64,000 bases of DNA from an archaeon (GCA_043799715.1 JAZDNM010000003.1:28903-92902), one strand, 5' to 3'. Shown: positions 5,197 through 32,570, counted from the first letter of the stretch. Translations and numbers: made by a program. The notes: generated from the sequence alone by a model not told the origin.

Positions 5197-5213
5197 AAAA
5201 GAAACCCCCCAAT

Positions 5214-5233: not shown

Positions 5234-5277
5234 AAAGTTATTTAAATAAGTAATGAACATTACTTTTGTAGGTAAAG

Positions 5278-5895: not shown

Positions 5896-6367
5896 GGCAA
5901 AATTGTATTTGCAAAGGGCAAAAAATGAATTAAATTTAGCGAGAGCAATCTTTAAACTGTCTTGCGAAGAGAAGTTAAAGACAGAATTTGAACTAACTGC
6001 TGATTCAACATTTTTTAGCAATGTTATAGCCAATTCTTATTACTGTATATTTTACTCTGCAAAGGCGATATTAGCAAGTAGAGGCATAAGAACATTTCCG
6101 CCAGAGGAGCACAAAAAAACACTCAATGAATTTGAAAAATTAGTAGATTCTGGCAAGATTGACATTGAATTATTGAGGATATACAAGTCAATTGTAGTGA
6201 AAGCAGAAGAGCTTCTTAATATATTCCAAAAAGAGAAAGGCAAGCGAGGAAAATTTACCTATCAAAAGCTCCCGCAGGCAAATTTACAGCCAGCAAGAGA
6301 GAGTTTGGATAATGCTGAAAAATTTTTCAGAAATATTTATTTGATTATTGAAAAAGAAACAAAATAA
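5879..6367 (+). CDS. HEPN domain protein, partner of the MNT gene
   Basis: The helical protein has the HEPN-type pattern YYCIFYSAKAILASRGIRTFPPEEHKKTLNEF. The ATG at 5879 (MDLMDRAKLYL) overlaps the MNT stop. The track's 5786 start lies inside the MNT gene and is unlikely. Confidence 0.7.
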   Translation: MDLMDRAKLYLQRAKNELNLARAIFKLSCEEKLKTEFELTADSTFFSNVIANSYYCIFYSAKAILASRGIRTFPPEEHKKTLNEFEKLVDSGKIDIELLRIYKSIVVKAEELLNIFQKEKGKRGKFTYQKLPQANLQPARESLDNAEKFFRNIYLIIEKETK

Positions 6368-6369
6368 TG

Positions 6370-6459
6370 AACACAAGCATGAACCTCACAGACACAATTG
6401 ATGTTTCAGGATGGACAGAAGGCAATTACAGCATGTCATGCAAAGTCAGGGATGTTTAA
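6370..6459 (+). repeat. Copy 2 of the LamG gene tail repeat, not attached to any long ORF
   Basis: The sequence aacacaagcatgaacctcacagacacaattgatgtttcaggatggacagaaggcaattacagcatgtcatgcaaagtcagggatgtttaa aligns without gaps to 5107-5196. It would encode NTSMNLTDTIDVSGWTEGNYSMSCKVRDV*. It begins 3 nt after the HEPN stop. Confidence 0.75.
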
Positions 6460-6518
6460 GCCCTATACCAATTTAACAGCAAAAATGTTACATAAGCAAC
6501 AAAAGATTAAAATGCATA

Positions 6519-6635
6519 ATGGAAACTGAAACCAAAATCATAAGGATGTTAATAGAAAAGAAGAGAGCTTTTACTATTAGAGAGAATATTGTCACAGAAA
6601 AGCATATATCAAAGAATAATAACCTTTATATATAA
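6519..6635 (+). pseudogene. Short ORF (38 aa) resembling the N-terminal winged-helix part of an MNT-type protein; possible cassette remnant
   Basis: METETKIIRMLIEKKRAFTIRENIV... parallels the N-terminus of the 5278 protein (KILGVFKENLFGEFSISEV). It is below the ORF-track size cutoff. Confidence 0.25.
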
Positions 6636-6670
6636 CTTTATATAAGTTATTATATACAAATATATAAAAA

Positions 6671-6931
6671 ATGGAACAAGAAATATTGCACTATCCAAAT
6701 TTAAGAACTGTCCTGATGGTAGAGAAAATTCTGAAAGAAGCAGAAACCACAATTTCTAGAACTGAACTAAAAGAAAGGCTGCCTAAAGGCATAATGCACC
6801 AAACCCTTAATTTGATTCTTGATTATTTAGAAAAAAGAGGAATGATAGTGGATATACATAAGGGAATATTGTGGATATACAATCCAAGCCCAAAACTAAA
6901 AGCTGCAATAGAAAAAGGGACAGAGGTTTAA
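6671..6931 (+). CDS. Small winged-helix DNA-binding protein, putative antitoxin
   Basis: The 86-aa protein abuts the next ORF directly (stop at 6929-6931, ATG at 6932). An AT-rich palindromic TATA-like region lies upstream at about 6620-6660. Confidence 0.5.
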   Translation: MEQEILHYPNLRTVLMVEKILKEAETTISRTELKERLPKGIMHQTLNLILDYLEKRGMIVDIHKGILWIYNPSPKLKAAIEKGTEV

Positions 6932-7309
6932 ATGTTCAGGGGAAAAGAGATTCATGTAGTATTTTCAGAAGAAGCAAGAGAAAGTTTTGACGAACTAAAC
7001 AAAGTTGTTGGTGAAGAGATTAAGAAGGATATAATGGCTTCTGTGCACCAAACCCTGCTTAAGTCCATAAACAGGGCAAAGGAATTGCTAAGAGAAAATC
7101 CTTTTGCAGGCATTCAAATACCCAAGAGCCGAATCCCCCGCAAATACCTTTTAAAGTATAATGTTACAAACCTCTGGAAAATAAACCTTTCAGATTTTTG
7201 GAGGATAGTTTATACTGCTACTGGCAACCAAGTTGAAATCATGGCTTTTGTTCTTGACATAGTTGACCATAAAACTTATGATAAGATATTTGGTTATAAG
7301 GGGAAGTAG
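6932..7309 (+). CDS. RelE/ParE-superfamily toxin-like protein
   Basis: The C-terminal pattern NLWKINLSDFWRIVYTATGNQVEIMAFVLDIVDHKTYDKIFGY is typical of RelE/ParE-fold addiction toxins. It is translationally coupled to the small upstream wHTH ORF. Confidence 0.55.
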   Translation: MFRGKEIHVVFSEEARESFDELNKVVGEEIKKDIMASVHQTLLKSINRAKELLRENPFAGIQIPKSRIPRKYLLKYNVTNLWKINLSDFWRIVYTATGNQVEIMAFVLDIVDHKTYDKIFGYKGK

Positions 7310-7310
7310 A

Positions 7311-7338
7311 GTGCTGAGCAACACAAACATGAATAATC
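7311..7338 (+). repeat. Copy 3 (partial) of the LamG tail region
   Basis: gtgctgagcaacacaaacatgaataatc matches atgctcagcaatacaagcatgaacataa at 5098-5125 at about 20 of 25 leading positions. It starts 2 nt after the toxin stop, the same relative position as copy 2. Confidence 0.4.
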
Positions 7339-7494
7339 TCCCAATAAGTTAAACAAATGTCCAAAAAATGAAAAAATACCTAAAAATAGGTAAAAAGAGA
7401 AGTAATAATTACCTCACTTCAAAATAAATCACAAAAATATCCAATATCACTATCCTCATCACACTCTCCAGATAAAAAGCAGGGAAAGCGAGAG

Positions 7495-7528
7495 GCGCGA
7501 GAAATCCCGGGATTTCGAAATGTCTCGC
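7495..7528 (+). promoter_or_regulatory. Nested palindrome enclosing the start codon of the 7520 gene
   Basis: There is a perfect 16-nt palindrome gaaatcccgggatttc at 7501-7516. It is flanked by gcgaga (7495-7500) and tctcgc (7523-7528), and the ATG (7520-7522) sits in the internal bulge. Confidence 0.35.
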
Positions 7529-12455: not shown

Positions 12456-13496
12456 ATGATAAATCTGCTTTATTTCTTCCTGCCTGCAATACTCCTGCTT
12501 GGGGGCTTGGCTTCATTCTGGGATATAAGGCATGGAAGAGTGAAAAATTGGCTTGTGCTTTGGGCGCTGGCTTATTCTGCAGTTGTATATCTTCTGCTTG
12601 TTATCTATCTTAAAATCTCCGGCATGCCTGTTAATGAGGCATATATCTCAGAACTCCTGACAAACTTCCTGTCTGCTGTTGCGTTCAGCTTCCTGCTTTA
12701 TTCATTCAGGTTCTGGGCTCCGGGCGATGCAAAGCTTTTCATTGCTTTCTCTGCGCTGATACCCCTATCTTTTTATTCCAGTTTTCATATAAGCATATTC
12801 CCCTCTCTTGTCTTTTTCAGCAATACTTTTGTCATCTCAGGGGCTTATCTGCTGATAAATTCAATTGTGATGCTGTGCAAAGGCAAAAAGGGATTAGGAA
12901 AGGTTCTTGATGCCAGGGATTTTTTCAAGAAAATTTTAATCCTCGTAATCTCAATATTTTCCTTTTCGTGGATAACAAGCATGTTCCTGAGAAGCTTTCT
13001 TCCTGTTTCTGGCTTTTATTTGACATTGATTTCTTATTCCTGTGCTGCTGTGCTTAATATTTTCCTTGCCAGAATTGTTAAAAATAAGAAGATACTGTAT
13101 CTTTCTTATTTCTTGCTTTCCCTGTTTAATATGGTATTTTTTAGGGCATACACCTCCTTGCTGAATGTATTAAGCTTCTCGCTATTTTTCTCTATTTTCA
13201 AAACAGTTGCAATAGATATGCAGGCAAGGATAAATATATCAAAGGCAAGAATAGGCAGTTTAATGCCTTACAGCCAGATTATGCAGCCACTTTTCCATAA
13301 CAAAAAGGAAATATGCAAAAAAGGGGAGGTTATCAACAGAGCCAAAATAAAAGAGATGAAAAGCGCTTTCAGCCTGGACAGAAAAATACTGGTTAAAGAC
13401 AATTCCGCCCTTGCGCCTTTCATGTTTATTGGGGCTCTTGTTACAATCCTGATAAAGGGAGAAGTAATAACATGGCTCCTTGCACTGATAAGGTAA
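12456..13496 (+). CDS. A24-family prepilin/preflagellin peptidase with a C-terminal extension
   Basis: It is polytopic and carries the two aspartyl motifs SFWDIRHGRVKNW and FWAPGDAKLFIAF, characteristic of type IV prepilin peptidases. Confidence 0.7.
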   Translation: MINLLYFFLPAILLLGGLASFWDIRHGRVKNWLVLWALAYSAVVYLLLVIYLKISGMPVNEAYISELLTNFLSAVAFSFLLYSFRFWAPGDAKLFIAFSALIPLSFYSSFHISIFPSLVFFSNTFVISGAYLLINSIVMLCKGKKGLGKVLDARDFFKKILILVISIFSFSWITSMFLRSFLPVSGFYLTLISYSCAAVLNIFLARIVKNKKILYLSYFLLSLFNMVFFRAYTSLLNVLSFSLFFSIFKTVAIDMQARINISKARIGSLMPYSQIMQPLFHNKKEICKKGEVINRAKIKEMKSAFSLDRKILVKDNSALAPFMFIGALVTILIKGEVITWLLALIR

Positions 13497-13497: not shown

Positions 13498-14163
13498 ATG
13501 AACAAACAAATGCGCTTTTTTGCCAGGGATGATGATGTTTTCGATTTAACTTCCAATTTAGTTAAATTTTCCAGAATGATGATTGAGCTTAAAGTGCCTG
13601 TTATTTATGGAATAATTCCGGGAAAAATAGAAAAAAAGCTTTCGGATTTTCTCTCAAAATTAAAAAAAGACAATGATAGTCTTGTGCATCTTGCGCAGCA
13701 CGGCTGGATGCATGCCAACTATGGAAAAACAAGAAAATATGAGTTTGGAATGTCAAGGGATTATGAAACCCAGAAAAAGGATATTCTGCAGGGGCTTGGT
13801 ATCATGCAGAAATTATTCGGATTCAAAAAGAGAATCTTTATTCCCCCTTATAATCATCTGAACAAGGCAACTGTCAGGGCTCTTGAGGGGCTGAATTTTG
13901 AATTTATTTCAACAGATTTGCCTGCAGCGCGCTTGGGAAAAATCAGGAACTTGCCTGCGATTATAAATTTTGAAACATTTACAGACAATGGCGTAAAGAA
14001 GAAAACATTAAGGGAGCTGCTGCTTGATTTTGCAATTCTAAGCAGAAAGACGAATTCATTTGGGATATATTTTCACCATAGGACTCTGGAAAAAAGGGAT
14101 TTTGAGACAATCAGGAAATTTATGGAGATACTGAAAGGAAAAAAAGTTAAATTTGTTTTGTAA
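13498..14163 (+). CDS. Polysaccharide deacetylase-like (NodB/CE4-like) protein
   Basis: It has divergent NodB-type motifs: ARDDDV, HGWMH and IPPYNH. It starts 2 nt after the peptidase stop. Confidence 0.5.
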   Translation: MNKQMRFFARDDDVFDLTSNLVKFSRMMIELKVPVIYGIIPGKIEKKLSDFLSKLKKDNDSLVHLAQHGWMHANYGKTRKYEFGMSRDYETQKKDILQGLGIMQKLFGFKKRIFIPPYNHLNKATVRALEGLNFEFISTDLPAARLGKIRNLPAIINFETFTDNGVKKKTLRELLLDFAILSRKTNSFGIYFHHRTLEKRDFETIRKFMEILKGKKVKFVL

Positions 14164-15182
14164 TGGACAGTAAAATGCAGAAAATCTCGGCAAAGAACAT
14201 AACATTTGAAATAACAAATGAATGCAATCTGAAATGTTCTGCCTGCCCTATGTGGCAGGAAGCTGAAAGAAAGAATCTTGGCAAAGATGCGATATTGGGG
14301 GTTCTGACATCGGGAATATTAAGGCATCCTCTTGAATCAGTGACATTGACAGGAGGAGAGCCGTTTATGCATCCGGAATTTAATGAAATTTTCAAGTCTC
14401 TTGTGTTGCTGAAGATGAAAAAGCAACTGAGGAAAATAGGGATATCCTCAAACGGCTATGACACTGCCAGAATTCTGGATTTTTTAAAGGAAAATAAGGA
14501 TTATGCAAGAGATATCAGTTTGTTCATCAGCCTTGACGGGTTTGGCAGTGTGCATGATAAACTCCGGGGCAGAAATAATGCCTTTGAGAAGACAATGAAC
14601 ACTATAAACGCTGTGAACAGTGAATTTGAAGATGTGAATCTAACCCTGAAATTCACAATCTGCAGTGAGAATGCAAATGAAATACCAAAAGTTTATGATT
14701 TTTGCAGCAAAATAGGCATAAATCTCCTTTTTAAGCTGCTGCAATCCTCTAATTCTGCGCATGGACTTACTCCCAAATACCGCAACAGCAGCAGGCAGGA
14801 CTTCATGAAAAAAATGCTTGATAATAAAAGCAGGGAGAAAATAGCAAAAGAGCTTCTCAGAATTATTGCTTCTGAGAAGAATTCAGGCGCATCAATTGTA
14901 AATCTGGATTACTTGTCTGCCCTTGTAGATTATCTTCAGGGAGAATTAGAGATAAAATCCTGCAAAACCCCTGAAAATTACCTTTTTATTGACTGCACAG
15001 GGAATATTTACCCTTGCTTGTATCAGGAGCCAATTGCGAATTGCCTTGATAAGGACTGGGAAAAGGAATTTTATAAAAAGAGATATGCAGAGATGATAAA
15101 TAATGCAGAAAAAGGCATATGCCCGAAATGCCTTGCTTATCATGGGTATTTAAAATACTGGAATTTCAAAAATGGCAATTAA
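14163..15182 (+). CDS. Radical SAM protein with a SPASM/twitch-like C-terminal Cys cluster
   Basis: It has the CX3CX2C motif (TNECNLKCSACPMW). The C-terminus reads CKTPENYLFIDCTGNIYPC...CPKC. Confidence 0.8.
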   Translation: MDSKMQKISAKNITFEITNECNLKCSACPMWQEAERKNLGKDAILGVLTSGILRHPLESVTLTGGEPFMHPEFNEIFKSLVLLKMKKQLRKIGISSNGYDTARILDFLKENKDYARDISLFISLDGFGSVHDKLRGRNNAFEKTMNTINAVNSEFEDVNLTLKFTICSENANEIPKVYDFCSKIGINLLFKLLQSSNSAHGLTPKYRNSSRQDFMKKMLDNKSREKIAKELLRIIASEKNSGASIVNLDYLSALVDYLQGELEIKSCKTPENYLFIDCTGNIYPCLYQEPIANCLDKDWEKEFYKKRYAEMINNAEKGICPKCLAYHGYLKYWNFKNGN

Positions 15183-16260
15183 CGAGAAAGCAGGGAACAT
15201 AAAAAGGGCAGAGGGCATAACAAAGAACAGGGCTCTTGTCGGCCCTGAAATAGCCCAGATAACAGCAGTAAGAAAATGCAACCAGTCATGCAAATACTGC
15301 TGGATTTATTCTGATGTGGCCAATAGATACTGCAAACTATATAATAATTTCTATATGAAATTCCGCAAAAATCAGGATTTTCCCATTTCCAAGTTCAAAG
15401 AGGTTGTTGATGACCTTGCTGAGATAGGAACTCCTACTCTGTCAATAAGCGGGGATGGCGAGCCATTCATGCATAAAAATCTTGGGGAAATGGTTCGCTA
15501 TGCTCATGAAAAAGGGCTTTCAGTAGGAATCCAGACAAATGGGACTATTTCCCTGGAGAATTTTAAGGAAATTGGCATGATTTCATTCCTGAATATTCAT
15601 GTTCCAAGCCTGAATGAAAAAAACTCGAGGCTTCTGCAGGCATCAGGAATTTCTTATCTTGATAGGGTTATAAGGAATATTCAGTGGATTTCCAGAATGG
15701 CTGAACATAGAACAATGCCCAAGATTGAACTTGGGCTTGTAGTCAACAAGATAAACTGCAATGAGATAATTGATTTCTTTGATTTTGCACTGAAGTATAA
15801 CATTGATTCAGTATGCCTTAAGAAACTCCGCTCTTTTAATCATGTTGATGAACTGTGCCTTGATAAGGGAGATATAGAAAAAATAAGGGACAGCGTAAAA
15901 TTTCTCCTTGGTTCAGGCAAATCCAGAAAAGTCAAGAACAACCTCGCAGCATTCCTCAAGGAATTAAACACTGAGGAAAGCAGAAAGCGCCAGAAATGCC
16001 TTGTAGGATATTACAGGGTTTATATAAATCTGGATGGAAGCACAAGCTTGTGCTGCTGGAACCCTTTCCGGTCATTCGGGAATGTTTTCAAGAAAAGATT
16101 AAAGGATATCTGGTTTTCAAAAAAGGCAGATAATCTTAGAGGAAAGATGCAGTCTATAAATACAGCAAAAGTTCTGTGGAGAACATGCAGAACCTGCCCT
16201 TTAAGCACTGTTGACTTGAACAAGAAACTATGCAATATCTCTGAGTACTTTAGTTCCTAG
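15172..16260 (+). CDS. Second radical SAM protein with a SPASM-like C-terminus
   Basis: It has the CX3CX2C motif (RKCNQSCKYCW). The C-terminus reads CLVGYYRVYINLDGSTSLCCWNP...CRTCP. It overlaps the previous rSAM gene by 11 nt. Confidence 0.75.
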   Translation: MAINEKAGNIKRAEGITKNRALVGPEIAQITAVRKCNQSCKYCWIYSDVANRYCKLYNNFYMKFRKNQDFPISKFKEVVDDLAEIGTPTLSISGDGEPFMHKNLGEMVRYAHEKGLSVGIQTNGTISLENFKEIGMISFLNIHVPSLNEKNSRLLQASGISYLDRVIRNIQWISRMAEHRTMPKIELGLVVNKINCNEIIDFFDFALKYNIDSVCLKKLRSFNHVDELCLDKGDIEKIRDSVKFLLGSGKSRKVKNNLAAFLKELNTEESRKRQKCLVGYYRVYINLDGSTSLCCWNPFRSFGNVFKKRLKDIWFSKKADNLRGKMQSINTAKVLWRTCRTCPLSTVDLNKKLCNISEYFSS

Positions 16261-17429
16261 CTGAAGATTTCCTTCCTTATTATTTTTTGGGAATTAAACC
16301 ACTCTTTTTTCATTTTTATAATATGTTTTTCACTGATTTTTTTTCTTATCTCTTCTGCCAGCCTGCCTGCGTCAATATTGCTGTATTCAATAATTGAACT
16401 ATCAGCTTTGTCTTTCAGAAGCAAAGCCCTGTAATACTGCTCTATCCCTGCTTTGCTTATGTTGTCAAATTTTGGGATGATTATTGATTTTTTTCCAAGG
16501 AGCATTGTTTCTGCAGAAGTGTTGTAGCCAGCCATGCTTACAGACAAGTCGCATGCATTGAGCAGCCTGCTGAAATCTGATGAAAATTTTATAAGTTTCA
16601 TATTTTTCCTGCCTTTAGCCATCTTCCTGAATATCTTTTCTTCTTTTGCAGTTGAGGATATCCCATAGACAACAATAAAGAAGAAATTATCCCCGAGGAT
16701 TTCTGACGCTTTTATTGCGCTTGAGATTATTTTTGGGTAGATAACTCCGCCTCCCCTGCTGGCAAGTATAATCTTTTGGTTTTTGCCTATGCCAAAAGCA
16801 TTCCTGAGACTATCATCTCTTCTTATTTTGGGCTTTGCTGTCAGATAATTTGTAAATGTAATCTTGGATGCAAGTTTGCTGAACACACTGTTATAGAAAT
16901 CAAGGATGTCATCTCTTCCTATCAGATTAAGCGCTTTCCTTATATAAGCCAAGTCAAGGTTTTCAGGGCAGTGAATCAAAATTTTGTCATAATATTCTGA
17001 AAATTTTAATATTCTCTCATTTTCAATTACAGGATATCCCACGCTTGCATAAATCTTTATTGAAGGATTAATCTGCCTGAGATGCCTTATTATTGAGGAT
17101 ATCTCAATTGAAAAGATTCTCCTGCCAAAAGGGAAAAATTCTGTTATAAACACATCAGGGCTGAAATCTTTTAACTTGTCCGTGATAAATTTTATTCTCT
17201 TTTTTATTCTTTCAATGCTTATTCTGGCTCTTCCTCCCTTGAACACCTCTTTTCCTGCTATGCTCCACGGAACATTTATTATTTCTGCATGAAAGTCTGG
17301 AATCTTTTGTGCCTTTCCTGCCTGTATAACAAGAATTTCATTTCCGGGCTTCAAAACATTAGCAAGGTTCCTTGTTCTTGATGTATGCCCAAGTGATTCA
17401 TAATGAGTATAATACAATGCGATTCTCAT
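16257..17429 (-). CDS. Glycosyltransferase (GT-B fold, GT1/GT28-like)
   Basis: The N-terminus MRIALYYTHYESLGHTSRTRNLA and the C-terminal nucleotide-sugar binding half (ASRGGG...MAGYNT) resemble MurG/MGT-type enzymes. Confidence 0.55.
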   Translation of the reverse strand: MRIALYYTHYESLGHTSRTRNLANVLKPGNEILVIQAGKAQKIPDFHAEIINVPWSIAGKEVFKGGRARISIERIKKRIKFITDKLKDFSPDVFITEFFPFGRRIFSIEISSIIRHLRQINPSIKIYASVGYPVIENERILKFSEYYDKILIHCPENLDLAYIRKALNLIGRDDILDFYNSVFSKLASKITFTNYLTAKPKIRRDDSLRNAFGIGKNQKIILASRGGGVIYPKIISSAIKASEILGDNFFFIVVYGISSTAKEEKIFRKMAKGRKNMKLIKFSSDFSRLLNACDLSVSMAGYNTSAETMLLGKKSIIIPKFDNISKAGIEQYYRALLLKDKADSSIIEYSNIDAGRLAEEIRKKISEKHIIKMKKEWFNSQKIIRKEIFS

Positions 17430-18529
17430 TTCTTCCTAAAAAACTCCCTTACTGCAGCGGAAATCTGCCTGATTTCATCCTCTTTTATAAAATGGAAAAA
17501 TGGAAGATGCAGGCATCTTTTGTAATAATCCTCTGCTCCTGGAAATTTCCTATTCTGGTTTTCTGAAAATATGCAGATTGCTGGATAAGGCAATTCTGCT
17601 AAGATATTTCTTTTTTTCAGGAAGTCATGCAGCATGTTCCTTTCATCCTCGCCTTCAAGCTGAATTACTAATCTTGTGTAAAGCCCTTCATTCTTGTTTT
17701 TTGAGTTGATAATCCTAATTTCATTTATACCGCTTAGTTCCTTGAAGTATAACTCTTTCATCTTGTTATGGCGCTCCTGCATCTTGCTGAAATACCTCAG
17801 CTGGACTGCAATGCTGCTTATCGCAGGAAGCGAAATTCTTGAAATTCCCTTGAGCTCCTTTGCCTGCATCAATCTGCTTATTTTTTCTGCATTCTCCTCT
17901 GATTTGAATGTGAGCATCCCGCCCCCGCTGCTGCCTATTGAAGAGATGAATTTTTCATTTGAGAAGCTGAAAATTGCAAAATCGCCTAAACTCCCAAGAT
18001 ACTTGTCATCAATCTTGTTTCCTATTGCCTGGCAGGCATCTTCTAAAAGAACGAGATTGTTTTTTTCTTTTATTTTAACAAGCTCTTTCATATTGCAGGC
18101 ATTTCCAAACATATGAGCTGCAACAATAGCCTTTGTATCCCTGTTGACAAGTTTCTCTGCCTTTTCTGTGTCAATTGCAAAATTTTCAGGATTTACATCG
18201 CACAGCCTCATTTTTATATCAGGGAAGCATGAGAAAGAGCTGGTTAAGCTGTAATATTCTGCTGCAGGAACAATAACCTCTGCTTTTTTTCCTCTGCTGT
18301 TTAAACTTAACAACCATAAGAAAAGAGTGAATGCCTGCGTGCCTGAACCAACGGATTTTGAATGAATAAACCCGAATTTCCTGCTGAATTCATCTTCGAG
18401 GGCAGCAGAATATTTTTGGATGTCATTTGCTCCATTTAAGCCCCTTATTGCCCTGCTGAGCTCTGCGAAATATTTTTTTTCGAGAATTTTGTCTATTCTC
18501 AGGTTGTCATGCCTTGCTTTCCACACCAT
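17426..18529 (-). CDS. DegT/DnrJ/EryC1/StrS-family PLP-dependent sugar aminotransferase
   Basis: It has the motifs GSGTQAF, EDACQAIG and GDFAIFSFSNEKFIS (Lys in the SF..K context). Confidence 0.8.
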   Translation of the reverse strand: MVWKARHDNLRIDKILEKKYFAELSRAIRGLNGANDIQKYSAALEDEFSRKFGFIHSKSVGSGTQAFTLFLWLLSLNSRGKKAEVIVPAAEYYSLTSSFSCFPDIKMRLCDVNPENFAIDTEKAEKLVNRDTKAIVAAHMFGNACNMKELVKIKEKNNLVLLEDACQAIGNKIDDKYLGSLGDFAIFSFSNEKFISSIGSSGGGMLTFKSEENAEKISRLMQAKELKGISRISLPAISSIAVQLRYFSKMQERHNKMKELYFKELSGINEIRIINSKNKNEGLYTRLVIQLEGEDERNMLHDFLKKRNILAELPYPAICIFSENQNRKFPGAEDYYKRCLHLPFFHFIKEDEIRQISAAVREFFRKK

Positions 18530-18559
18530 AAGCCTTAAAAATAATTCAAATTTAAATAT

Positions 18560-19741
18560 ATGATGGTTGAGGTTGAGGCTGCAAGAGATGAAAGGGAGAT
18601 TATAGCGCAGTTCAACATTCTATTGAAGAATTTCTCAGGTTTCAATAATCTGGGCGAAGTCAGGGAGATAAGAAAAATTGAGGACATAGATAGAATACCA
18701 ATGACAACAAGGCAGAGCCTTGAATCACTGGGAATAAAGAATGCTCCTATTCAACCTTTATGCATGCATGTGACAAGCGGCTCTTCAGGCAAAAATGTCC
18801 CTGTATTCTACTCTGAAAAATCATGGCAAGTTCTTGTGGAAAGGACAAAAAAGCTTTTTGAATTTATGGAAATTTCAAAGAAAGACATAGTCCTTAACCT
18901 GTTTGAATACGGGCTTTCAAATGAGGGGCTTGCAATAGACAATGCGCTGGCAAGTGCGGGGATAGCTGCATTTCCCTGCGGAAATCTTGAAAAGGAAAAG
19001 AAGTATCTTGCCAGGGACTTGATTAAAAAGATAAAGCCAACAGCCCTTATCTCTTTTCCTTCATTTATCTTTGACCTTATTGAATTGAATGCTGACTTGT
19101 CATCGATAAAGAAGATTATGCATGCAGGCAGCTTTGTATCAAGGGAGTTCTTTGATTTTATGCGCAGCAGGATAGATGCTGTTTTTTACAATTGCTATGG
19201 CTGCAACGAAGTCGGCCCTATTTCAATCAGCAGGACTTTTGAAGATGAATTCTCGCTTCTTATTGATAAAGGGCTTTACATAGAGGTTCTTGATGACAAT
19301 AGCAAGCCGCATGAAATAGGAGAAGGCAGGATTTTAATCACTGATTTGTATAATCTTTCAACCCCAATGATAAGATATTTTCTTGGTGACAGGGTTAAAA
19401 TAATAAAGCAGGATGGAAAAAAATATATAAAAGTCCTGAAAAGAGAGGACTCCTACTCCAAAATAAACGGCGCTGTAATGCCTGTAGGTCTGCTTGTAAA
19501 GACATGCATGGAACAAATAGGGCATGACCACTTTTCAATACTTGTGAATTTTTCAAAATCCTCAATGAAGGACGAGACTGTAATCTATCTGCTCAAAAAA
19601 GATGCAGGCAAGGCATCAGCACTGCAGAAAGAGTTCAACGAGAAACTTAATCTCTTCCCGCAAATCAAGCTGATAGGAAATATGCCCAGGACATTCACAG
19701 GCAAGATAAGGAATTTTATTGATGCAAGAAAACCAGAGTAA
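18560..19741 (+). CDS. Adenylate-forming ligase of the PaaK/CapK/F390-synthetase family
   Basis: It has the AMP-binding motif TSGSSGKNVPVFYS, and its size and architecture match phenylacetate-CoA ligase-like enzymes. Confidence 0.7.
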   Translation: MMVEVEAARDEREIIAQFNILLKNFSGFNNLGEVREIRKIEDIDRIPMTTRQSLESLGIKNAPIQPLCMHVTSGSSGKNVPVFYSEKSWQVLVERTKKLFEFMEISKKDIVLNLFEYGLSNEGLAIDNALASAGIAAFPCGNLEKEKKYLARDLIKKIKPTALISFPSFIFDLIELNADLSSIKKIMHAGSFVSREFFDFMRSRIDAVFYNCYGCNEVGPISISRTFEDEFSLLIDKGLYIEVLDDNSKPHEIGEGRILITDLYNLSTPMIRYFLGDRVKIIKQDGKKYIKVLKREDSYSKINGAVMPVGLLVKTCMEQIGHDHFSILVNFSKSSMKDETVIYLLKKDAGKASALQKEFNEKLNLFPQIKLIGNMPRTFTGKIRNFIDARKPE

Positions 19742-19750: not shown

Positions 19751-20662
19751 TTATTTTACAAGAGAATATACATCCATATAGCTGAGGGACTTGTCAGAGC
19801 ATAGCGCCTTTAATTCCTCTGTTTTAATCAGGGAGCATTTTTCATAATTATTCTCCTGCCGGACATAGCTTATTATTGACAAGTCCATTGAAATCCTGTT
19901 GAATAGGTCATTGCAGTCTTTTCTTATAATGCCCCTGCATGCTTCAGAATACCCTATCCCCAAATTCTTGTTTGAGCATAAATTCTCATCGTTCTTAGAG
20001 ATTGCAAGCCTTTCTGTGAAATATCTCTCGCAGTCTTCATTTGAAAATTCAAGGCATCTTGATGCATTAACAAGAATCGCGCTGCATATGGCTTCTGAAC
20101 TGCCTGTTAATCCTATGCATGATTTTTCCTGCACAGCCCTGCATATTTCTTCATCAACCAAGCCCCCCTCTCCTGCTTCGTCTTTAAGCGTGCTGCAGTC
20201 TATATTTGAATATTTCTCTATATCCGCGACTATTGCTTTATAGTCATTGTAATCTGCGATGCACCACTGCCTTGAAATTGAGTTGTTTATGAAATTGCAC
20301 TTGCTCTCATTATCAGAAACAACCGCCTCACAGCTGACAACATTTGCAACCCACCTTATGTCCTTTTCAACAAGATGATACCTCAAACTCTCAACATCCC
20401 CTGAAACAACATTTTCAAAAGGAACAGGTATTTCAATAATCTTCACTCTTGGCATAAAAATAAAGATTGCAGCTATAATAAGTATGATTGAGATTCCTGC
20501 TGCAAGAAATATCATGCTGTTGTTCTTTGAGATGGAGTTTATTGCCTCTCTGGCATCTTTCTCAGGATATCCTTTTTTTCCAATTTCCTCTTTTAACTGC
20601 GCTATGGAAATCCCTTTTCTAAGTCCATTTTTTATGTAATTCACAAGAACTTGGTTAACCAT
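19751..20662 (-). CDS. Single-pass membrane protein with a Cys-rich extracytoplasmic domain
   Basis: A small N-terminal helical domain is followed by a TM helix (MIFLAAGISIILIIAAIFIF) and then about 16 Cys residues. It lies 12 nt downstream of the His/Ser-rich peptide gene on the same strand. Confidence 0.5.
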   Translation of the reverse strand: MVNQVLVNYIKNGLRKGISIAQLKEEIGKKGYPEKDAREAINSISKNNSMIFLAAGISIILIIAAIFIFMPRVKIIEIPVPFENVVSGDVESLRYHLVEKDIRWVANVVSCEAVVSDNESKCNFINNSISRQWCIADYNDYKAIVADIEKYSNIDCSTLKDEAGEGGLVDEEICRAVQEKSCIGLTGSSEAICSAILVNASRCLEFSNEDCERYFTERLAISKNDENLCSNKNLGIGYSEACRGIIRKDCNDLFNRISMDLSIISYVRQENNYEKCSLIKTEELKALCSDKSLSYMDVYSLVK

Positions 20663-20674
20663 CTTTTTTTGAAT

Positions 20675-20935
20675 TTAGTATTCTGTCTGCGAGTGGCTTG
20701 CATGATGTGAATGCGTTGCTGTTGCTGTCCCGCTGGCATAACCCTGGCTTAAGTCATTGCTGTGTGTTGCCTGGCTGTGCGCAGCAGCAGGCTGCGACAT
20801 GAGTATTATATTTGCGAGTATAACTCCTGCTTTTATTATCTTATCCTTAGAAATAGTGCCTTCCTCGTCATTCAGGAAATTTTTAAGCTCCTGCTTAATC
20901 TTTGGAAAGAATTTCTTTCCCGCCTCTTTTGCCAT
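20675..20935 (-). CDS. Small His/Ser-rich protein, candidate radical SAM substrate (HxsA-like)
   Basis: This 86-aa protein has a basic N-region, the hydrophobic segment AGVILANIILMSQPAAA, and the tail HSQATHSNDLSQGYASGTATATHSHHASHSQTEY. It starts 5 nt after the rSAM stop. Confidence 0.55.
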   Translation of the reverse strand: MAKEAGKKFFPKIKQELKNFLNDEEGTISKDKIIKAGVILANIILMSQPAAAHSQATHSNDLSQGYASGTATATHSHHASHSQTEY

Positions 20936-20940
20936 TATAT

Positions 20941-22338
20941 CTAATCGCTAATCCAATTTTTAAATATTTCCCTGTTCTCTTTCCCCTCAGCCATTTTCTC
21001 AAATATATACCTGAACTGCCCTGTGTAAATTATGTGCCTCATGCTGCAGCTTATCTTAGGCAGGACATTGCCCTGCTCGCTGTGGTTTATTACAGGGCAT
21101 GTTCCAATCCACGGAAGGAATGCAGAAAGGGGAGAGTAAAGATTCATTGCAGAAGAGCCAGCCATGTAAAACATGTTAGGACTGCCAAGAACCTCTTCAT
21201 ACCTGTTATTCTCAACATTTCCAAGCTTGAACAAGTCATTCCCAGTCATTCTTGCCTCATCGCATGTGAAAACATCGCCGTTTTCAGAGTACAATATCTG
21301 GCTTCTGCCTGCCCCACAAGGGCTCATTAGTTCAGTGTACAAAGCATCTTTTTTCAGCAGAATTTTCTTCAGCATTATAACAGAAGTTGTTTCTTTTATT
21401 TTTGTTCCTTTTTTGTTCAGTTCAAGAATGTAATCAAGTGCTGAACGCCAGAATTTTAGGAACTCTTCTGCTGTGTAGCCAATCTCTTTCCAGTTTTCTT
21501 TTGCAACTCCGAGATAATTGAGAAATCTCATATGAATGCTGTCAAAGCCCTGCTTTGCATACTCATCAACTATCTCTTTCCAGTATGGAAGCGAATTTCT
21601 TGTTATTGTTGGCAGGGCTCCGACAATTTTCCTGCTGTTCTTTTTTATTGACAGGGCATTTATTTTTCTTATTCCGCTTATGACATCATCATAACTGCCC
21701 TTGCCTGAAATATAATGCCGGTTCATGTCATGAAGGGATTTCTGCCCGTCAAGCGATGTGCATACAGTTATATCATTATCAAGGATAAAATCAATATGCT
21801 CTTCTTTTATTGATGTCAGGTTGGAGACAATTGTGATTTTCAAGTCCTTGTTTTCTATCTTGTTTATTTTCCTTGCCTCTTCTGCAATAAACTTGAGAAC
21901 ATCCCAGTTAAGCAGCGGCTCTCCGCCCTGAAATTCTATTGTTATTGCTTTTGAAGGGCTCTGGAAAATAAAATTGAGAACTTTTAATGCTGTGTCCCTG
22001 CTCATTTTCTCGATTTTTCTGTCCTTGGCATGGCAGTAAACACAGCCAAGGTTGCATTCAGGAGTCAGGCTTACTATATGCAGTGATGGACCCAAAAAAA
22101 GATTCGCATTAAGGTTCCTGTAATTTTTTATAATCCTGTTTATATTTTCCTTGCTTGCTATTATGTCCTTTTCATGAAGTTTTGTCTCCAGTTCCTTGCT
22201 GAGATTTCTGCTTAATAGGCATTTCCATTCCTCTTCATCAAGCATCGCCCATGAGCCGAAGAATGTTGTTACAAGATGCTTATCTTTTATCTTTTCTTCA
22301 TTAAACGGCAGCAGAATATGCTGTTCTTCAAGCGCCAT
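20941..22338 (-). CDS. Radical SAM/SPASM-type peptide maturase candidate (anSME/HxsB/HxsC-like)
   Basis: An extension of about 90 aa precedes the CX3CX2C motif (TPECNLGCVYCHA). Auxiliary-cluster cysteines lie downstream (SPCGAGRSQILYSENGDVFTCDE, GTCPV...ISCS). Confidence 0.8.
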   Translation of the reverse strand: MALEEQHILLPFNEEKIKDKHLVTTFFGSWAMLDEEEWKCLLSRNLSKELETKLHEKDIIASKENINRIIKNYRNLNANLFLGPSLHIVSLTPECNLGCVYCHAKDRKIEKMSRDTALKVLNFIFQSPSKAITIEFQGGEPLLNWDVLKFIAEEARKINKIENKDLKITIVSNLTSIKEEHIDFILDNDITVCTSLDGQKSLHDMNRHYISGKGSYDDVISGIRKINALSIKKNSRKIVGALPTITRNSLPYWKEIVDEYAKQGFDSIHMRFLNYLGVAKENWKEIGYTAEEFLKFWRSALDYILELNKKGTKIKETTSVIMLKKILLKKDALYTELMSPCGAGRSQILYSENGDVFTCDEARMTGNDLFKLGNVENNRYEEVLGSPNMFYMAGSSAMNLYSPLSAFLPWIGTCPVINHSEQGNVLPKISCSMRHIIYTGQFRYIFEKMAEGKENREIFKNWISD

Positions 22339-22567
22339 TCTTGCTCCCTGAAAGATTATCCATTTTTATTTTTTCCAATCCAAGGCAATAATTGCAAAAC
22401 TCAAGCGCCTGCTCCTTATCCGAAAGCAGGATGCTTATTGATGTCTTGCTCTCTGTTTTTTTTGTGCCTTCAATTCCAAAATCCTTGATTGCCTTTTCAA
22501 TGCTCTCATTGGAGTATAAGTCCTTGCTTAGTTCAAGAATTATTTTTCCTTCTTTATGGATTATCAT
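22328..22567 (-). CDS. Small HxsD-like protein (short paralog)
   Basis: This 79-aa protein shares an N-terminal pattern with the upstream 127-aa protein (KIILELSKDLYSNESIEKAIKDF) and has an EFCNYCLGLEK motif. It overlaps the rSAM start by 11 nt. Confidence 0.45.
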   Translation of the reverse strand: MIIHKEGKIILELSKDLYSNESIEKAIKDFGIEGTKKTESKTSISILLSDKEQALEFCNYCLGLEKIKMDNLSGSKNGA

Positions 22568-22576
22568 CTTGCTTTA

Positions 22577-22960
22577 TTACTTCTTGCTCTTTGTTTCATC
22601 CAAATCTCTCAGGAGCTCTTCAATCTCTTTTTCTTCTGCCTCTTCTGCTATCGAGGGATTTGCGCTGAATAAAGCCCTTTCAAGAATCATTTTCACTATA
22701 TCCTTTTCTCTTTTCAAAGAGGCATAGTAATTCCCGTAGTTTATCAGCTCGTCATAGAATTCCTGCTTTATTTTTTCTGCATCTTTCCCATTTTTCCTGA
22801 AAATCTGCACTATAATCTCTTTTTTCGGGTTTCCATCAAGGATTATGTATGCCCTATCAAGCATTGAATATGCTGCTGCATAAATCACTTGCATTGAATA
22901 TATCTGGGGATTTATCTTTATGATAACTGATTCATCTTTGCTGTTTTCATTCTCTTTCAT
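22577..22960 (-). CDS. HxsD-like accessory protein
   Basis: The patterns VIIKINPQIYSMQVIYAAAYSMLDRAYIILD and FYDELINYGNYYASLKREKDIVKMILERALF resemble, from memory, the HxsD family and its LLNDYxLRE signature. Confidence 0.5.
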   Translation of the reverse strand: MKENENSKDESVIIKINPQIYSMQVIYAAAYSMLDRAYIILDGNPKKEIIVQIFRKNGKDAEKIKQEFYDELINYGNYYASLKREKDIVKMILERALFSANPSIAEEAEEKEIEELLRDLDETKSKK

Positions 22961-23016: not shown

Positions 23017-24435
23017 CTAACCCTTCATTACTGCAATTGGCTTTAATTTTGCCACAAGCTTGCCTATTCCTGCCTCGTGGCTTACTTTTACAACTTCGTC
23101 TATGTCTTTGTATACTTGCGGCGCTTCCTCTGCTATTGATTTCCACGAAGCTGCCTTGATTTCTATGTTCTTTTTTGCAAGCTCATCCCTTATCTGCTCC
23201 CCCCTGAACTCGCGCAATGCAGCGCTTCTTGAGCTTACTCTTCCTGCGCCATGCGCAGTGCTTGCAAATGAAATTTCCTCTGCTGTTTTTGTTCCGAGCA
23301 GAACATAGCTTGATGTGCCCATGCTGCCAGGCAGTATAATCGGCTGCCCTGCATCCCTGTAAACTTCAGGAATTTCCTCTCTCCCTGCCCCGAAGCTTCT
23401 TGTTGCGCCTTTCCTGTGCACGCAAACTTCCCTAATTTTGTCATCAATCCTGTGCTTTTCAATTTTTGCTATATTGTGGCATACATCATATACAACTCCA
23501 ATCTTGCATGGCAGCAGTTTGCTGAAAACTTCCCTTATCCAGTGGGTTATCATCTGCTTGTTGCAGAAAGCAAAGTTTGCTGCTGCGCTCATAGCAGCAT
23601 AATATTTCTGCCCCATGTCGGACATGATAGGCGCGTTTATCAGCTCCCTGTCAGGCAGATTTTTGAAACCATACTTGTCTTCCATCAGTTTTATGTAGTC
23701 AGAAGCAACCTGATGCCCCAATCCCCTTGAGCCGCAATGCACCATAATCATAACCTGCCCCTTTTCTGTTATGCCGAGCATTCTCGCTGTTCTTTCATCA
23801 TATATCTCTGAAACTTCCTGTATCTCAAGAAAGTGATTCCCGGCGCCAAGGCTTCCAAGCTGCGGCATTCCTCTTTCAATTGCCCTTGCTGAAACCTCTG
23901 ATGCTTTTGCAGTTTTCATGCATCCCTCTTCTTCTGTTTTTTTCCAGTCATCTGCAGTGCCAAATCCCTGCCTGACAGCCCACTTTGCCCCCTGTTCAAG
24001 AACATCCTTTATGACATCCCTTGTCTGCCTTGTCTTTCCTGCCCTTCCAACTCCGCTTGGCACATTTGAGAACAATTCATTCAGAATTTCAGTTCTTTTT
24101 TTCATCAGTTCCTTTGCTGTCAGGTCAGTTTTTAAAAGGCGGACTGAGCAGTTGATGTCATATCCAACTCCTCCTGGAGAAATAATGCCTTCATTCATGT
24201 CAAATGCCGCCACTCCTCCGATGGGAAAACCGTATCCGGAATGAACATCAGGCATTGCTATTGCATATTTGAGTATTCCAGGCAGTTTTGCAATATTTGC
24301 AAGCTGCTGCACTGCTGTTTCCTCAACATCCCTGAGCAGTTTTTCAGAGATAAATGCCTTTGCAGGCACTTTCATGCTCCCTTCTTTCGGCAGCTCAAAT
24401 TCGAACTTGCTGATTTTTCTCAGTTTTTCTTTCAT
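23017..24435 (-). CDS. rtcB: RNA-splicing ligase RtcB
   Basis: It has the diagnostic motifs GYDINCSVRLL, GAGNHFLEIQ, HCGSRGLGHQV and HGAGR. Confidence 0.95.
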   Translation of the reverse strand: MKEKLRKISKFEFELPKEGSMKVPAKAFISEKLLRDVEETAVQQLANIAKLPGILKYAIAMPDVHSGYGFPIGGVAAFDMNEGIISPGGVGYDINCSVRLLKTDLTAKELMKKRTEILNELFSNVPSGVGRAGKTRQTRDVIKDVLEQGAKWAVRQGFGTADDWKKTEEEGCMKTAKASEVSARAIERGMPQLGSLGAGNHFLEIQEVSEIYDERTARMLGITEKGQVMIMVHCGSRGLGHQVASDYIKLMEDKYGFKNLPDRELINAPIMSDMGQKYYAAMSAAANFAFCNKQMITHWIREVFSKLLPCKIGVVYDVCHNIAKIEKHRIDDKIREVCVHRKGATRSFGAGREEIPEVYRDAGQPIILPGSMGTSSYVLLGTKTAEEISFASTAHGAGRVSSRSAALREFRGEQIRDELAKKNIEIKAASWKSIAEEAPQVYKDIDEVVKVSHEAGIGKLVAKLKPIAVMKG

Positions 24436-24532: not shown

Positions 24533-25732
24533 GTGGTAAAAGCTATGAGAACAACAGAAGAATATTTTAATTCATACAGGCAGGTTCAAAAGGGTTCTTT
24601 TAGAATATTGGGCAATGAGAACAAAGAAATAGAGGAGTTCAGAACAGTTGAGATAAGGCAGCAGCCGTTATTCAGGCAGTATTCAACTCTTATATGTGTT
24701 GAAAGGGCAAACAGGCCTGTAAATTTCAACCATAGCTCTAACCTTTACACCAAGGGGCATATTCAGGACGTTGTTAGTAAGATGCTCCAAAGCAATATGG
24801 ATGGAATAAATTTAGAGAAAGCAGTTGAAAATGAACTTCTAAAAATTGACCAGAGTGAAGAAAAAAAGAAAAGAGACAAATGCCCTTTCTGCTACCCTAA
24901 CCTGGAGAAGGTAACGCCAAATCCCAAGAAGATGCATAATAGCGGGCTTACAATAGAGGATTCTGAGTTTAAACTTGCGAAAATGCCTGAATCAAAAGTA
25001 ATCAGTGTTCCCAATCTCTATCCATTTACTGTTCCTCATTGGGTTACTATCTTTGCAAAACACAAGCCGGACTTGCAGGAATTGAACTTTCAGGATATTT
25101 TCAATTATATCGAAAGCGGGTATGAAATCGCGAAAGAGATAAAATTTATAGAAGGTGTTGATGGCATGTGGGATATAATAAACTGGGGTCCTGAAGCCGC
25201 TGCTTCCCAACCGCATCCGCATGCCCAGCGAGGGGGCATAGCAACAATGATGATTACTGAAATGGACAGAGAAATAGAAAAATGCACTGCCGCAAAAAAA
25301 TACCTTATGGATGACCCATTTGAGCATTATATGAATAGAATAAGGCAAAGCGCCTTATTTGGTTTTGAGAATGAGCACATACTTATTCATGCACCATTCG
25401 CACCAAAATTTCCGCATTCAATAGATATAATATGCAAGAGAAAAGCGGGCAATATACTTGATTTAAATGAACATGAAAGGAAGGTAATTGCGCACAGCAT
25501 GCTTGGTGTTTTCCACTTGCTTTATAACCGATGCGGGGTCAGGGACTTGAATGTTGTAACGCACCAAACAAGATTAAACAGCAAGAACGAGTCGGATTAT
25601 CATCTTCATTGGCACTTTATGCCCAGAAATCTCAACAAGCTTGGAGGAGTAGAAATAAATCTGAATAATTTTGTGGTTTCAGTTTTTCCAGAAGCAACAG
25701 CAAAAGAGATAAAAACACATTACAAGGTCTAA
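24533..25732 (+). CDS. GalT-branch HIT-superfamily nucleotidyltransferase/phosphorylase-like protein
   Basis: It has the zinc motif DKCPFC, the active-site-like SQPHPHAQ (His-Pro-His), and a second HLHWHFMPR. The track start is GTG, and an alternative ATG lies at 24545. Confidence 0.6.
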   Translation: MVKAMRTTEEYFNSYRQVQKGSFRILGNENKEIEEFRTVEIRQQPLFRQYSTLICVERANRPVNFNHSSNLYTKGHIQDVVSKMLQSNMDGINLEKAVENELLKIDQSEEKKKRDKCPFCYPNLEKVTPNPKKMHNSGLTIEDSEFKLAKMPESKVISVPNLYPFTVPHWVTIFAKHKPDLQELNFQDIFNYIESGYEIAKEIKFIEGVDGMWDIINWGPEAAASQPHPHAQRGGIATMMITEMDREIEKCTAAKKYLMDDPFEHYMNRIRQSALFGFENEHILIHAPFAPKFPHSIDIICKRKAGNILDLNEHERKVIAHSMLGVFHLLYNRCGVRDLNVVTHQTRLNSKNESDYHLHWHFMPRNLNKLGGVEINLNNFVVSVFPEATAKEIKTHYKV

Positions 25733-25736: not shown

Positions 25737-26162
25737 TCACAAGTCAACAACAACCTGCGCTGAAAACTTGCCTTTCTCTTTTTTTATCAGCATGCTGTTG
25801 TATGTGACTGCCTTTACCTCTCCGAATGTTTCATATTTCTTTGAGTTGTCCCCGAGAATTTCTGCTTCAAGCACGTATTTCCCTTCATTTCCTGAGATTT
25901 TCATTTTTTCAATCCTGCATGCAAGGAAATTTTTGGAATCAAGCAGGAATATAACCTCCTCAAGAAAATTATAAAGCAGGGATTCAGGATTTTTTGCCTT
26001 AACTTTTATCTTTTTGCTTGTTTTTCTGATTATTTTGCTGGTTTCGCACATCAAGTTCAGCATCGCCATTGCTGAATTGCTGAATGCCTCTTCCAGTGTC
26101 CTGCCTGTTGCAATGAACTTGCCGTCTGCAGTGTGCTCAAGATATCTGTATCCTTTTGCCAT
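25737..26162 (-). CDS. Archease (RtcB activator)
   Basis: The N-terminus YRYLEHTADGKFIATGRTLEEAF matches the archease signature EHTAD...G.tleE. Confidence 0.85.
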   Translation of the reverse strand: MAKGYRYLEHTADGKFIATGRTLEEAFSNSAMAMLNLMCETSKIIRKTSKKIKVKAKNPESLLYNFLEEVIFLLDSKNFLACRIEKMKISGNEGKYVLEAEILGDNSKKYETFGEVKAVTYNSMLIKKEKGKFSAQVVVDL

Positions 26163-32417: not shown

Positions 32418-32570
32418 TGGGGACAGGGCGAATCGAACGCCCAACCGACGGTTTCTTCGCTATTGTAGTTTCTTTCTACTTCCAAGCTTTTTAATTTCTC
32501 TTTCCAAGGTTTCTCTTTTGAAAGAGAAAGCTTTCTGGAGCCGTCCGTTTTACCATTAAACTATGCCCCC
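32418..32570 (-). tRNA. tRNA-Trp (CCA) with an intron of about 81 nt at the canonical 37/38 position
   Basis: Manual fold: acceptor GGGGGCA/TGTCCCC, anticodon stem GACGG/CCGTC, loop CTCCAGA, T arm GGGCG-TTCGATT-CGCCC, discriminator A. The intron spans about 32453-32533. Confidence 0.85.

Follow-up and report, generated by a model that had tools for sequence, protein, structure and literature searches.

The canonical HXS system, encoded in the order HxsD-B-C-A, is a broad antiphage system that blocks the entry of phage DNA (PMC13128918, Nat Commun 2026). Its substrate HxsA combines a signal peptide and five basic His-x-Ser (HxS) repeats with a peptidoglycan-binding domain; the protein undergoes N-terminal processing, is modified by +8 Da on an SHRSS motif and reaches the periplasm by export. 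Both radical S-adenosylmethionine enzymes (rSAMs) are required, HxsD binds HxsC and not HxsB, and 99.7% of the canonical systems in a census searched with HxsA were found in Pseudomonadota (PMC13128918). Here we consider a cassette of five open reading frames (ORFs) at positions 19751-22960 of a 64,000-nucleotide (nt) stretch of DNA from an archaeon (GCA_043799715.1, JAZDNM010000003.1:28903-92902), the whole of which is called the window below. A first-pass annotation had described this cassette as a compact archaeal variant of an Hxs peptide maturation operon, and the product of the bacterial Hxs system as unknown; the second statement is out of date, since canonical HXS is antiphage and an HxS repeat of its substrate is modified by +8 Da (PMC13128918), and the first, as discussed below, is too narrow. 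The best explanation, which we hold to be rather probable, is that the cassette encodes a reduced Hxs rSAM maturation system of the HxsA3-like kind, in which the tail of a small precursor would be modified and exported, the leader removed and the product displayed at the cell surface.

The first-pass annotation was right in placing five co-directional and tightly packed genes on the minus strand (Table 1): they are separated, in order from the HxsD-like gene D1, by 9 nt, an 11-nt overlap (between the HxsD_rel-like gene D2 and the HxsB start), 5 nt and 12 nt. For each of the five proteins, related loci contain a homologue in the corresponding position, and we therefore regard the ORFs as real genes and not as chance ORFs. 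NCBI names the identical rSAM protein HxsB and calls the other four cassette genes hypothetical. When scored against the NCBIfam models, the rSAM reaches 404.1 bits over the full length of TIGR03978 (HxsB, cut-off 370) and is an HxsB orthologue. D1 matches TIGR03976 (HxsD) with 44.5 bits (E 1.5e-11), just under the cut-off of 50, its homology being supported by its place in the cassette and by the conservation of its family, and D2 matches NF038315 (HxsD_rel) with 34 bits (E 2.4e-8, cut-off 41), so that the resemblance of both small proteins to HxsD, noticed from the sequence alone, is borne out by matches that stay below the cut-offs. The protein of 86 amino acids (aa), called A here, matches NF038309 (HxsA3) with 51.7 bits over model positions 2-78 of 81 (cut-off 65) and gives no match to TIGR03979 (HxsA), a model with a cut-off of 121.65 to which the Aeromonas HxsA scores 230.6 bits.

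A scan of one genome per species gave at least 592 matches to HxsB, and the best 80 of these (37-52% identity), ranked by similarity to an archaeal query, were analysed; the locus counts given here come from profiles built on the window proteins, with 74 evaluable loci for D1 and D2, 73 for A, and 80 for everything else. The 80 relatives come from Omnitrophota, Planctomycetia-labelled metagenome-assembled genomes (MAGs), Candidate Phyla Radiation (CPR)/Patescibacteria, other bacteria, and Woesearchaeota, Nanoarchaeota and other archaeal MAGs. The order D1-D2-B-A on one strand is kept in about 92-95% of the evaluable loci, and the survey of co-occurrence found, in bacteria and archaea together, a D1 homologue upstream of HxsB in 70/74 loci, a D2 homologue in 68/74 and a His/Ser-rich ORF A adjoining the rSAM in 67/73, which also answers whether this last ORF is conserved at that place. 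The cassette variant is thus widespread and not specifically archaeal, being found also in Omnitrophota, in Planctomycetia-labelled MAGs and CPR, in other bacteria and on viral contigs. One of these loci (L029, 428-5553) carries a tandem duplicate of the cassette, D1 D2 B A D1 D2 B A followed by a Cys-rich ORF, and both HxsB copies score identically.

Six viral or prophage contigs of IMG/VR, 21-76 kb long (L085-L090), carry the cassette, for example L085 at 3353-9007, in the order HxsD, HxsD_rel, A24 protease, HxsC, HxsB, a protein with MORN repeats and peptidoglycan binding, and HxsA3; their A proteins reach 113 bits with HxsA3, D1 reaches 68 bits with HxsD and the second rSAM 249-283 bits with HxsC. 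L090 also encodes a siphovirus DUF859 protein and has a PG_binding_1 domain in its MORN-repeat protein. The presence of the cassette on viral contigs fits a role in defence or exclusion. Among the 73 positional homologues of A, 69 match HxsA3 and 38 match HxsA4, which indicates that the NCBI curators already model these variants; as NCBIfam holds models for HxsA2-A4, HxsC4 and HxsD_rel, the window cassette extends a known kind and is not a new kind. No paper describing these HxsA3/HxsA4-type variants was found in the library of open-access PMC and bioRxiv papers that was searched. The window cassette is part of a large, unpublished and partly curated radiation of Hxs systems beyond Pseudomonadota.

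In the HxsB of the window, an N-terminal extension of about 85 aa precedes the CxxxCxxC motif, which occupies residues 95-102. Cysteines C95/C99/C102 and C341/C359/C414 are invariant in the family and C193 is nearly invariant; the auxiliary pattern C341-x12-G-x4-C359 plus C414 is kept throughout, so that the N-terminal extension and the auxiliary cysteines of the first-pass annotation are both present. In Pfam the protein scores 63 bits with Radical_SAM and 18.5 bits with SPASM, under the cut-off of 21.5, and its three to four conserved auxiliary cysteines suggest one auxiliary cluster. The closest solved structure is that of the SCIFF maturase CteB (PDB 5WGG, E 3e-27), a thioether synthase, which places HxsB in a peptide-modifying clade; a clade with a non-peptide substrate had been the alternative to check. 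With CteB and the anaerobic sulfatase-maturating enzymes (anSME), HxsB has in common an N-terminal extension and an rSAM core with auxiliary-cluster cysteines (CX12GX4C) behind it, the aligned region starting after the first ~100 residues of CteB and the first ~85 of HxsB. Unlike these enzymes, HxsB has only three to four conserved auxiliary cysteines and its substrate is without Cys, a composition that excludes thioether formation on the tail.

The rSAM three-residue cyclophane synthases HtkB, which joins C2 of His to the C-beta of Lys, and also HaaB act on H-x-K and H-A-A motifs (PMC11499958). These are likewise rSAM enzymes in which a His ring is joined to a side chain two residues away, a precedent with the spacing found in H-x-S, but HxsB falls outside their families, with weak matches to the cyclophane-forming GrrM/OscB, YhhB and AmcB (54-79 bits versus cut-offs of 310-445), and the one measured Hxs shift is +8 Da and not the -2 Da of a simple cross-link. 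The window HxsB is 31-35% identical to the HxsB proteins of Aeromonas (34%), Leptospira, Adhaeribacter and Nostoc, whose reference loci are all ordered D-B-C. In a neighbour-joining tree it pairs with a Woesearchaeota MAG (L002); the group made up of the window and its four nearest relatives (L001-L004) is sister to an Omnitrophota/Planctomycetia-labelled clade, and the canonical Aeromonas HxsB lies far outside.

The two HxsD-like proteins are related to each other: a profile-profile comparison of D1 and D2 (hhalign) gives 94% probability (E 1.3e-7), from which D2 can be regarded as a paralogue of the N-terminal half of HxsD. A kinship of HxsD_rel with the HxsB N-terminus was also considered and was rejected (hhalign probability 0.7%). 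The window D1 does not have the C-terminal DPxGIAxPWExK motif that is found in the consensus of 61 family members. The HxsD profile has no match among PDB sequences.

Protein A has a Lys-rich leader, a hydrophobic segment and a His/Ser tail. The leader is its most conserved part, with the consensus [FLI]PK[IL]KKx[IL]KxF[LI]x[DS]E[ED]GxI[ST]Kxx[IL][LI]K[IA] in 73 members, and at least 71 of these retain F20, E24 and G26; it may be the recognition leader, as this pattern of conservation would predict. The protein ends in precisely the sequence quoted in the first-pass annotation. Its last 35 residues contain six His (P = 1.5e-5 against a His background of 1.5%, taken from the long ORFs of the window), four HS and one HAS, exactly the four xHS units and one HAS that had been counted at the first reading. 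The window tail has 17% His, close to the family median of 19%, and family tails range from 0 to 46 HxS units, with a median Lys-or-Arg count of one; 47 of 68 members have Tyr or Trp as their last residue. Two motifs, H[ST]N[DS][LI]Sxx[YF] and one of the G[TS]H[ST]HHxSH[ST]SY type, are common to the window, L001-L004, L030, L034, L041 and L043; the subgroup to which the window tail belongs has these two conserved motifs and few repeats. As a separate observation, the HxsA3/A4-like ORFs of L052, L053, L061 and L072 are about 500 aa long with very high profile scores and are apparently much longer repeat proteins.

Compared with canonical HXS, represented by the Aeromonas salmonicida plasmid locus L081, the window has an HxsB orthologue at 34% identity and an HxsD homologue upstream of it, and its substrate can be likened by analogy to one with His/Ser repeats and an export signal that undergoes rSAM maturation, N-terminal processing and export. 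It differs in having no local HxsC and an extra HxsD paralogue; in a substrate of only 86 aa, in which a long conserved leader precedes the hydrophobic segment, the His/Ser stretch is C-terminal and neither a peptidoglycan-binding domain nor Arg-rich repeats are found; in two additions, the Cys-rich membrane partner and the associated A24 protease; and in its archaeal host. The HxsA3-type cassettes L085-L090 are closer to it, as they share the architecture of leader, hydrophobic segment and HxS tail as well as the HxsD and HxsD_rel pair, HxsB and an A24-like protease; unlike the window they have a bona fide HxsC (up to 283 bits), a MORN/peptidoglycan-binding protein and no Cys-rich partner, and their A3 proteins bear a Pro/Thr-rich extension and score 113 bits, versus 51.7 bits for A of the window. 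This archaeal cassette is HxsA3-like and locally HxsC-less, its Cys-rich partner had not been annotated before, and the A24 protease is encoded at a distance from it.

The 64-kb window contains no HxsC: its best rSAM scores 52 bits with TIGR03977, which has a cut-off of 267.9. We also built a profile from seven bona fide HxsC proteins, with which generic rSAMs give at most 38 bits; the best score in the window is 29.5 bits for a gene at 14163-15182 (rSAM1), which is background. The same profile detects HxsC- or HxsC4-like rSAMs of about 300 aa (75-210 bits) within 7 kb of HxsB in 31/80 relatives; L006, L007, L010, L018 and L021 have them between D2 and B, and in CPR and archaeal loci they lie a few kb downstream. 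The idea that no relative has an HxsC, which came from looking at the rSAMs most similar to HxsB, is ruled out by these 31 loci. Ten of these HxsC-like rSAMs were scored against NCBIfam, and all ten have as their top match either HxsC (173-207 bits) or HxsC4 (154-288 bits), under the cut-off. No HxsC-like gene is found in the loci of the four nearest relatives L001-L004, so one rSAM is a real local property of the small subclade of the window, and not of the variant as a whole. The first-pass statement that there is one rSAM with two HxsD-like proteins, the inverse of the canonical proportions, therefore holds for this cassette but not for the 31 relatives with an HxsC-like gene.

It is possible, if rather doubtful in our opinion, that this is still a two-rSAM system, with HxsC or HxsC4 encoded elsewhere in the genome or its task carried out by the rSAMs at 14163-16260, in which case "one rSAM" would be an artefact of a five-gene view. 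The HxsC-like genes near HxsB in the 31 relatives and the need for both rSAMs in the canonical system (PMC13128918) favour this idea, as do the recurrence of rSAM1 and rSAM2 homologues near the cassettes of L002, L003, L009, L026 and L045 and the fact that the window is 64 kb out of a contig of 352,935 bp. However, neither rSAM1 nor its neighbour rSAM2 (15172-16260) behaves as an HxsC, as rSAM1 stays at the generic rSAM background and rSAM2 has no score with the HxsC profile; by BLASTP, the likeness of rSAM1 to one bona fide HxsC (24% identity) is confined to the rSAM core, and rSAM1 has no significant match to the Aeromonas HxsC. The loci L001-L004, likewise without an HxsC-like gene, also speak against it.

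For the processing of the precursor, the clustering of neighbouring ORFs points to a family of A24 prepilin-peptidase-like polytopic membrane proteins of 290-400 aa, present in 40/80 loci, of which an ORF of the window is a full-length member (family hidden Markov model E 1.6e-55). The catalytic Asp residues of GxGD proteases are kept (D23 in 40/40 members, GD91 in 37/40). In about 16 archaeal loci, and in L001, the gene immediately precedes HxsD and shares its strand; in Omnitrophota it is found 3-4 kb downstream and on the other strand, and the viral contigs L085-L090 have it within the cassette. From this pattern, the A24 gene of the window probably belongs to the Hxs system as its processing protease. 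Residue 37 of the precursor is always small in the family (of 73 members, 54 have G, 11 S and 8 A) and follows K35 in 57/73, which makes it a candidate prepilin-type cleavage point, and the A24 protease is the best candidate for N-terminal processing by a cut at this invariant small residue.

Class III signal peptides consist of a short charged leader, a charge at -2, Gly or Ala at -1 and a hydrophobic stretch, and are cut by a dedicated A24 peptidase. As for PilD, FlaK and PibD, a GxGD protease is here linked genomically to a charged leader, a small residue and a hydrophobic stretch; unlike in those systems, the conserved leader has about 36 aa with its Lys at -3, and the protease of the window is extended at its C-terminus and reaches only 28 bits with PF01478. 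The hydrophobic stretch has 12-19 residues in the family and often ends in small-x-small, which in the window is AAA, so that AAA52 is a candidate signal peptidase I site and a cut at this AxA site competes with a prepilin-peptidase-type cut before the hydrophobic segment. As the class III fit is imperfect, cleavage by signal peptidase after AAA52 is a live alternative.

The same data could be read as a pilin-like fibre or adhesin, that is a class III precursor cleaved by A24 whose hydrophobic N-terminus would drive the assembly or anchoring of a His/Ser-tipped structure serving the attachment of an ultra-small symbiont. The strong A24 association and the invariant small residue at the junction of leader and hydrophobic segment would fit, and so would the large Ig-like/fn3 surface proteins upstream in archaeal loci and the frequency of the cassette in small-celled DPANN, CPR and Omnitrophota among the best matches, which were ranked by an archaeal query. 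We consider this reading improbable, as the neighbourhoods contain no pilus ATPase or platform genes, the mature part would have only about 50 aa, and the leader, with an uncharged -2 position, is far longer than usual prepilin leaders.

The fifth gene encodes a 303-aa protein with a single hydrophobic segment, beyond which all of its 14 Cys are found (P = 4e-6); the count of about 16 in the first-pass annotation was too high. By the positive-inside rule, the N-terminus would be cytoplasmic and the Cys-rich domain outside. Pfam, NCBIfam and PADLOC give the protein no match that is significant or passes a curated threshold, and word-based homologue searches recovered only itself and three relatives. 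An exhaustive HMMER scan of 1.84 billion representatives gave 156 clusters at E <= 1e-3, most with members of 240-320 aa, and all those with a source name are called hypothetical; about ten Cys columns are conserved (C122, C134, C156, C174, C182, C193, C229, C242, C276 and C288 in the numbering of the window protein). A member is present in 24/80 loci, usually directly after A, and the family is concentrated in Omnitrophota (8/13 loci), in Planctomycetia-labelled loci (9/10) and in the subclade of the window. In many other loci, the same position is occupied by an unrelated-looking Cys-rich ORF of 250-320 aa. An AlphaFold2 model built from a 100-sequence alignment is all-alpha with one transmembrane helix (predicted local distance difference test, pLDDT, 91.1; predicted template modelling score 0.70), where an earlier model from four sequences was poor (pLDDT 56). 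Searched with Foldseek against PDB and BFVD, the full-length model, whose transmembrane helix may depress the scores, finds nothing at E <= 0.001, the best hits being 14-3-3-like helical proteins at E > 1. The adjacency of the two genes suggests that the Cys-rich protein may be a holder or receptor of the exported tail.

A different use of the same parts would be a secreted metal-binding peptide, as the first-pass annotation suggested: signal peptidase would cut at AAA52, the free modified peptide of 34 residues would bind Ni, Zn, Cu or Fe, and the Cys-rich protein would be its metal-handling or receptor partner. The His content of the tail in the window and across the family, the small-x-small motif after the hydrophobic segment throughout the family and the ten or so conserved Cys of the partner ectodomain are in keeping with this, and His-crosslinked copper-binding ribosomal peptides (PMC10206099) offer a precedent. 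We nevertheless think it unlikely: it is an argument from composition only, no gene for a metal transporter, chaperone or regulator is seen in the conserved neighbourhood, the one Hxs system that has been characterised serves defence and not metals, and the strong A24 link is left unexplained.

For the reduced Hxs maturation system that we prefer, the following course can be proposed. The Lys-rich cytoplasmic leader would be recognised by HxsB, through its N-terminal extension, and/or by the HxsD/HxsD_rel pair, and HxsB would carry out a radical cross-linking of the His/Ser tail in the cytoplasm, probably in the THSHHASHS...Y region. The hydrophobic segment would then carry the tail across the membrane, N-in and C-out, and the leader would be removed, most probably by the A24 GxGD protease at G37 and alternatively by signal peptidase after AAA52. 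The modified tail would remain on or at the cell surface, with the Cys-rich alpha-helical ectodomain as its likely partner, be it a holder, a receptor or a redox/metal partner. By analogy with canonical HxsA, which bars phage DNA from entry, the most likely role would be an envelope-level function.

Several points weigh against this proposal. D1, D2 and A are all under their NCBIfam cut-offs, and the modification chemistry, the export, the cleavage and the partner binding are steps that we infer. As the canonical system needs both rSAMs and its HxsD binds HxsC, a system with HxsB only may be incomplete or may need an HxsC encoded elsewhere. The tail has no Lys and no Arg, where the canonical repeats are Arg-rich, and the electrostatic mode of DNA binding that has been proposed would therefore not carry over unchanged. 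The A24 gene of the window is about 9 kb from the cassette and on the opposite strand, the K-x-G junction has its Lys at -3 where the class III rule wants a charge at -2, and pilus assembly genes are absent among the annotated recurrent neighbour families. The cassette is not in a recognisable defence island, its neighbours being housekeeping and sugar-modification genes, and PADLOC (2023) finds in the window only a generic viperin-like rSAM match and nothing specific.

A bolder version, which we put forward as speculation and think quite unlikely as a whole, is that DPANN-type archaea possess a minimal Hxs system with a single rSAM: with the HxsD/HxsD_rel pair as its guide, HxsB alone would cross-link a 34-residue His/Ser peptide, which would be released onto the cell surface by a dedicated prepilin-peptidase-like protease and held there by a so far unseen disulfide-rich alpha-helical receptor, and would serve as an antiviral envelope barrier or else as a surface device for contact with a host. 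The antiviral barrier, if true, would be the first rSAM-matured defence effector outside bacteria. Whatever the role, HXS has been reported as essentially confined to Pseudomonadota, whereas related cassettes, whose substrate is differently designed, are common in Omnitrophota, CPR and DPANN and occur on viral contigs; the A24 GxGD peptidase can be named as a candidate enzyme for N-terminal processing in Hxs; the Cys-rich proteins add a family with a confident model that is without a match among solved structures; and one local rSAM with a Cys-free core of 34 residues would offer a simple start for the study of HxsB chemistry on His/Ser motifs.

Table 1. Features of the window, with positions counted from its first nucleotide.
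Feature	Position	Strand	Remarks
HxsD-like protein D1	22577-22960	-	127 aa
HxsD_rel-like protein D2	22328-22567	-	79 aa
HxsB rSAM	20941-22338	-	465 aa
HxsA3-like precursor A	20675-20935	-	86 aa
Precursor leader, aa 1-36	20828-20935	-	conserved, Lys-rich
Precursor hydrophobic segment with AAA, aa 37-52	20780-20827	-	
Precursor His/Ser tail, aa 53-86, and stop codon	20675-20779	-	
Cys-rich membrane protein	19751-20662	-	303 aa; 297 aa with the NCBI start
A24 prepilin-peptidase-like membrane aspartyl protease	12456-13496	+	PF01478, 28.4 bits; NCBI: prepilin peptidase
DUF2334 deacetylase, two rSAMs (one with SPASM), GT28 glycosyltransferase, PseC/LegC-like DegT aminotransferase, PaaK-like AMP-binding ligase	13498-19741	.	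Pfam, NCBIfam
RtcB tRNA-splicing ligase	23017-24435	-	560 bits; ends 56 nt before the HxsD-like start
Archease, RtcB activator	25737-26162	-	upstream of the cassette, as RtcB
ORF with TTG start	151-5196	+	1681 aa
ORF with GTG start	24533-25732	+	399 aa; no Pfam match
tRNA genes (Rfam)	32418-32570 (-), 38719-38801 (-), 42190-42348 (+), 45181-45321 (+), 45374-45491 (+), 46517-46650 (+)		

Between the A24 gene and the cassette lies a cluster (13498-19741) whose genes have homologues, in shuffled order, in the archaeal loci L002, L003, L004 and L026 and in the bacterial loci L006, L009, L012, L015 and L021. With the window included, DUF2334 is found in 10 loci, DegT in 10, GT28 in 7 and the AMP-binding ligase in 4; rSAM1 and rSAM2 have homologues in 4 and 3 related loci, respectively. 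This recurrence is suggestive of a link with the cassette and of a sugar or acyl modification, perhaps of the Ser-rich tail; the numbers are small, and it serves as a lead only. Recurrent neighbours in the related loci include Ig/fn3 surface proteins, RNase P p30, GNAT and ketoacyl synthases. In L005 (4997-8406), and also in L008, L011 and L027, the A24 gene is followed by a GNAT-like gene, two ketoacyl-synthase-like genes and a gene for a protein of about 110 aa, which suggests an acyl-chain pathway next to the cassette in Omnitrophota loci of the L005 type. L005 (188-628) and 10-13 other Omnitrophota or Planctomycetia-labelled loci encode, directly upstream of HxsD, a secreted family of about 150 aa with no Pfam or NCBIfam match.

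Elsewhere in the window, two long ORFs start with TTG and GTG, respectively (Table 1). Five of the six tRNA genes have long introns (spans of 118-159 nt), and ARAGORN reports none of the six; intron-bearing tRNAs are in keeping with an archaeal genome and with the genes for RtcB and archease next to the cassette.

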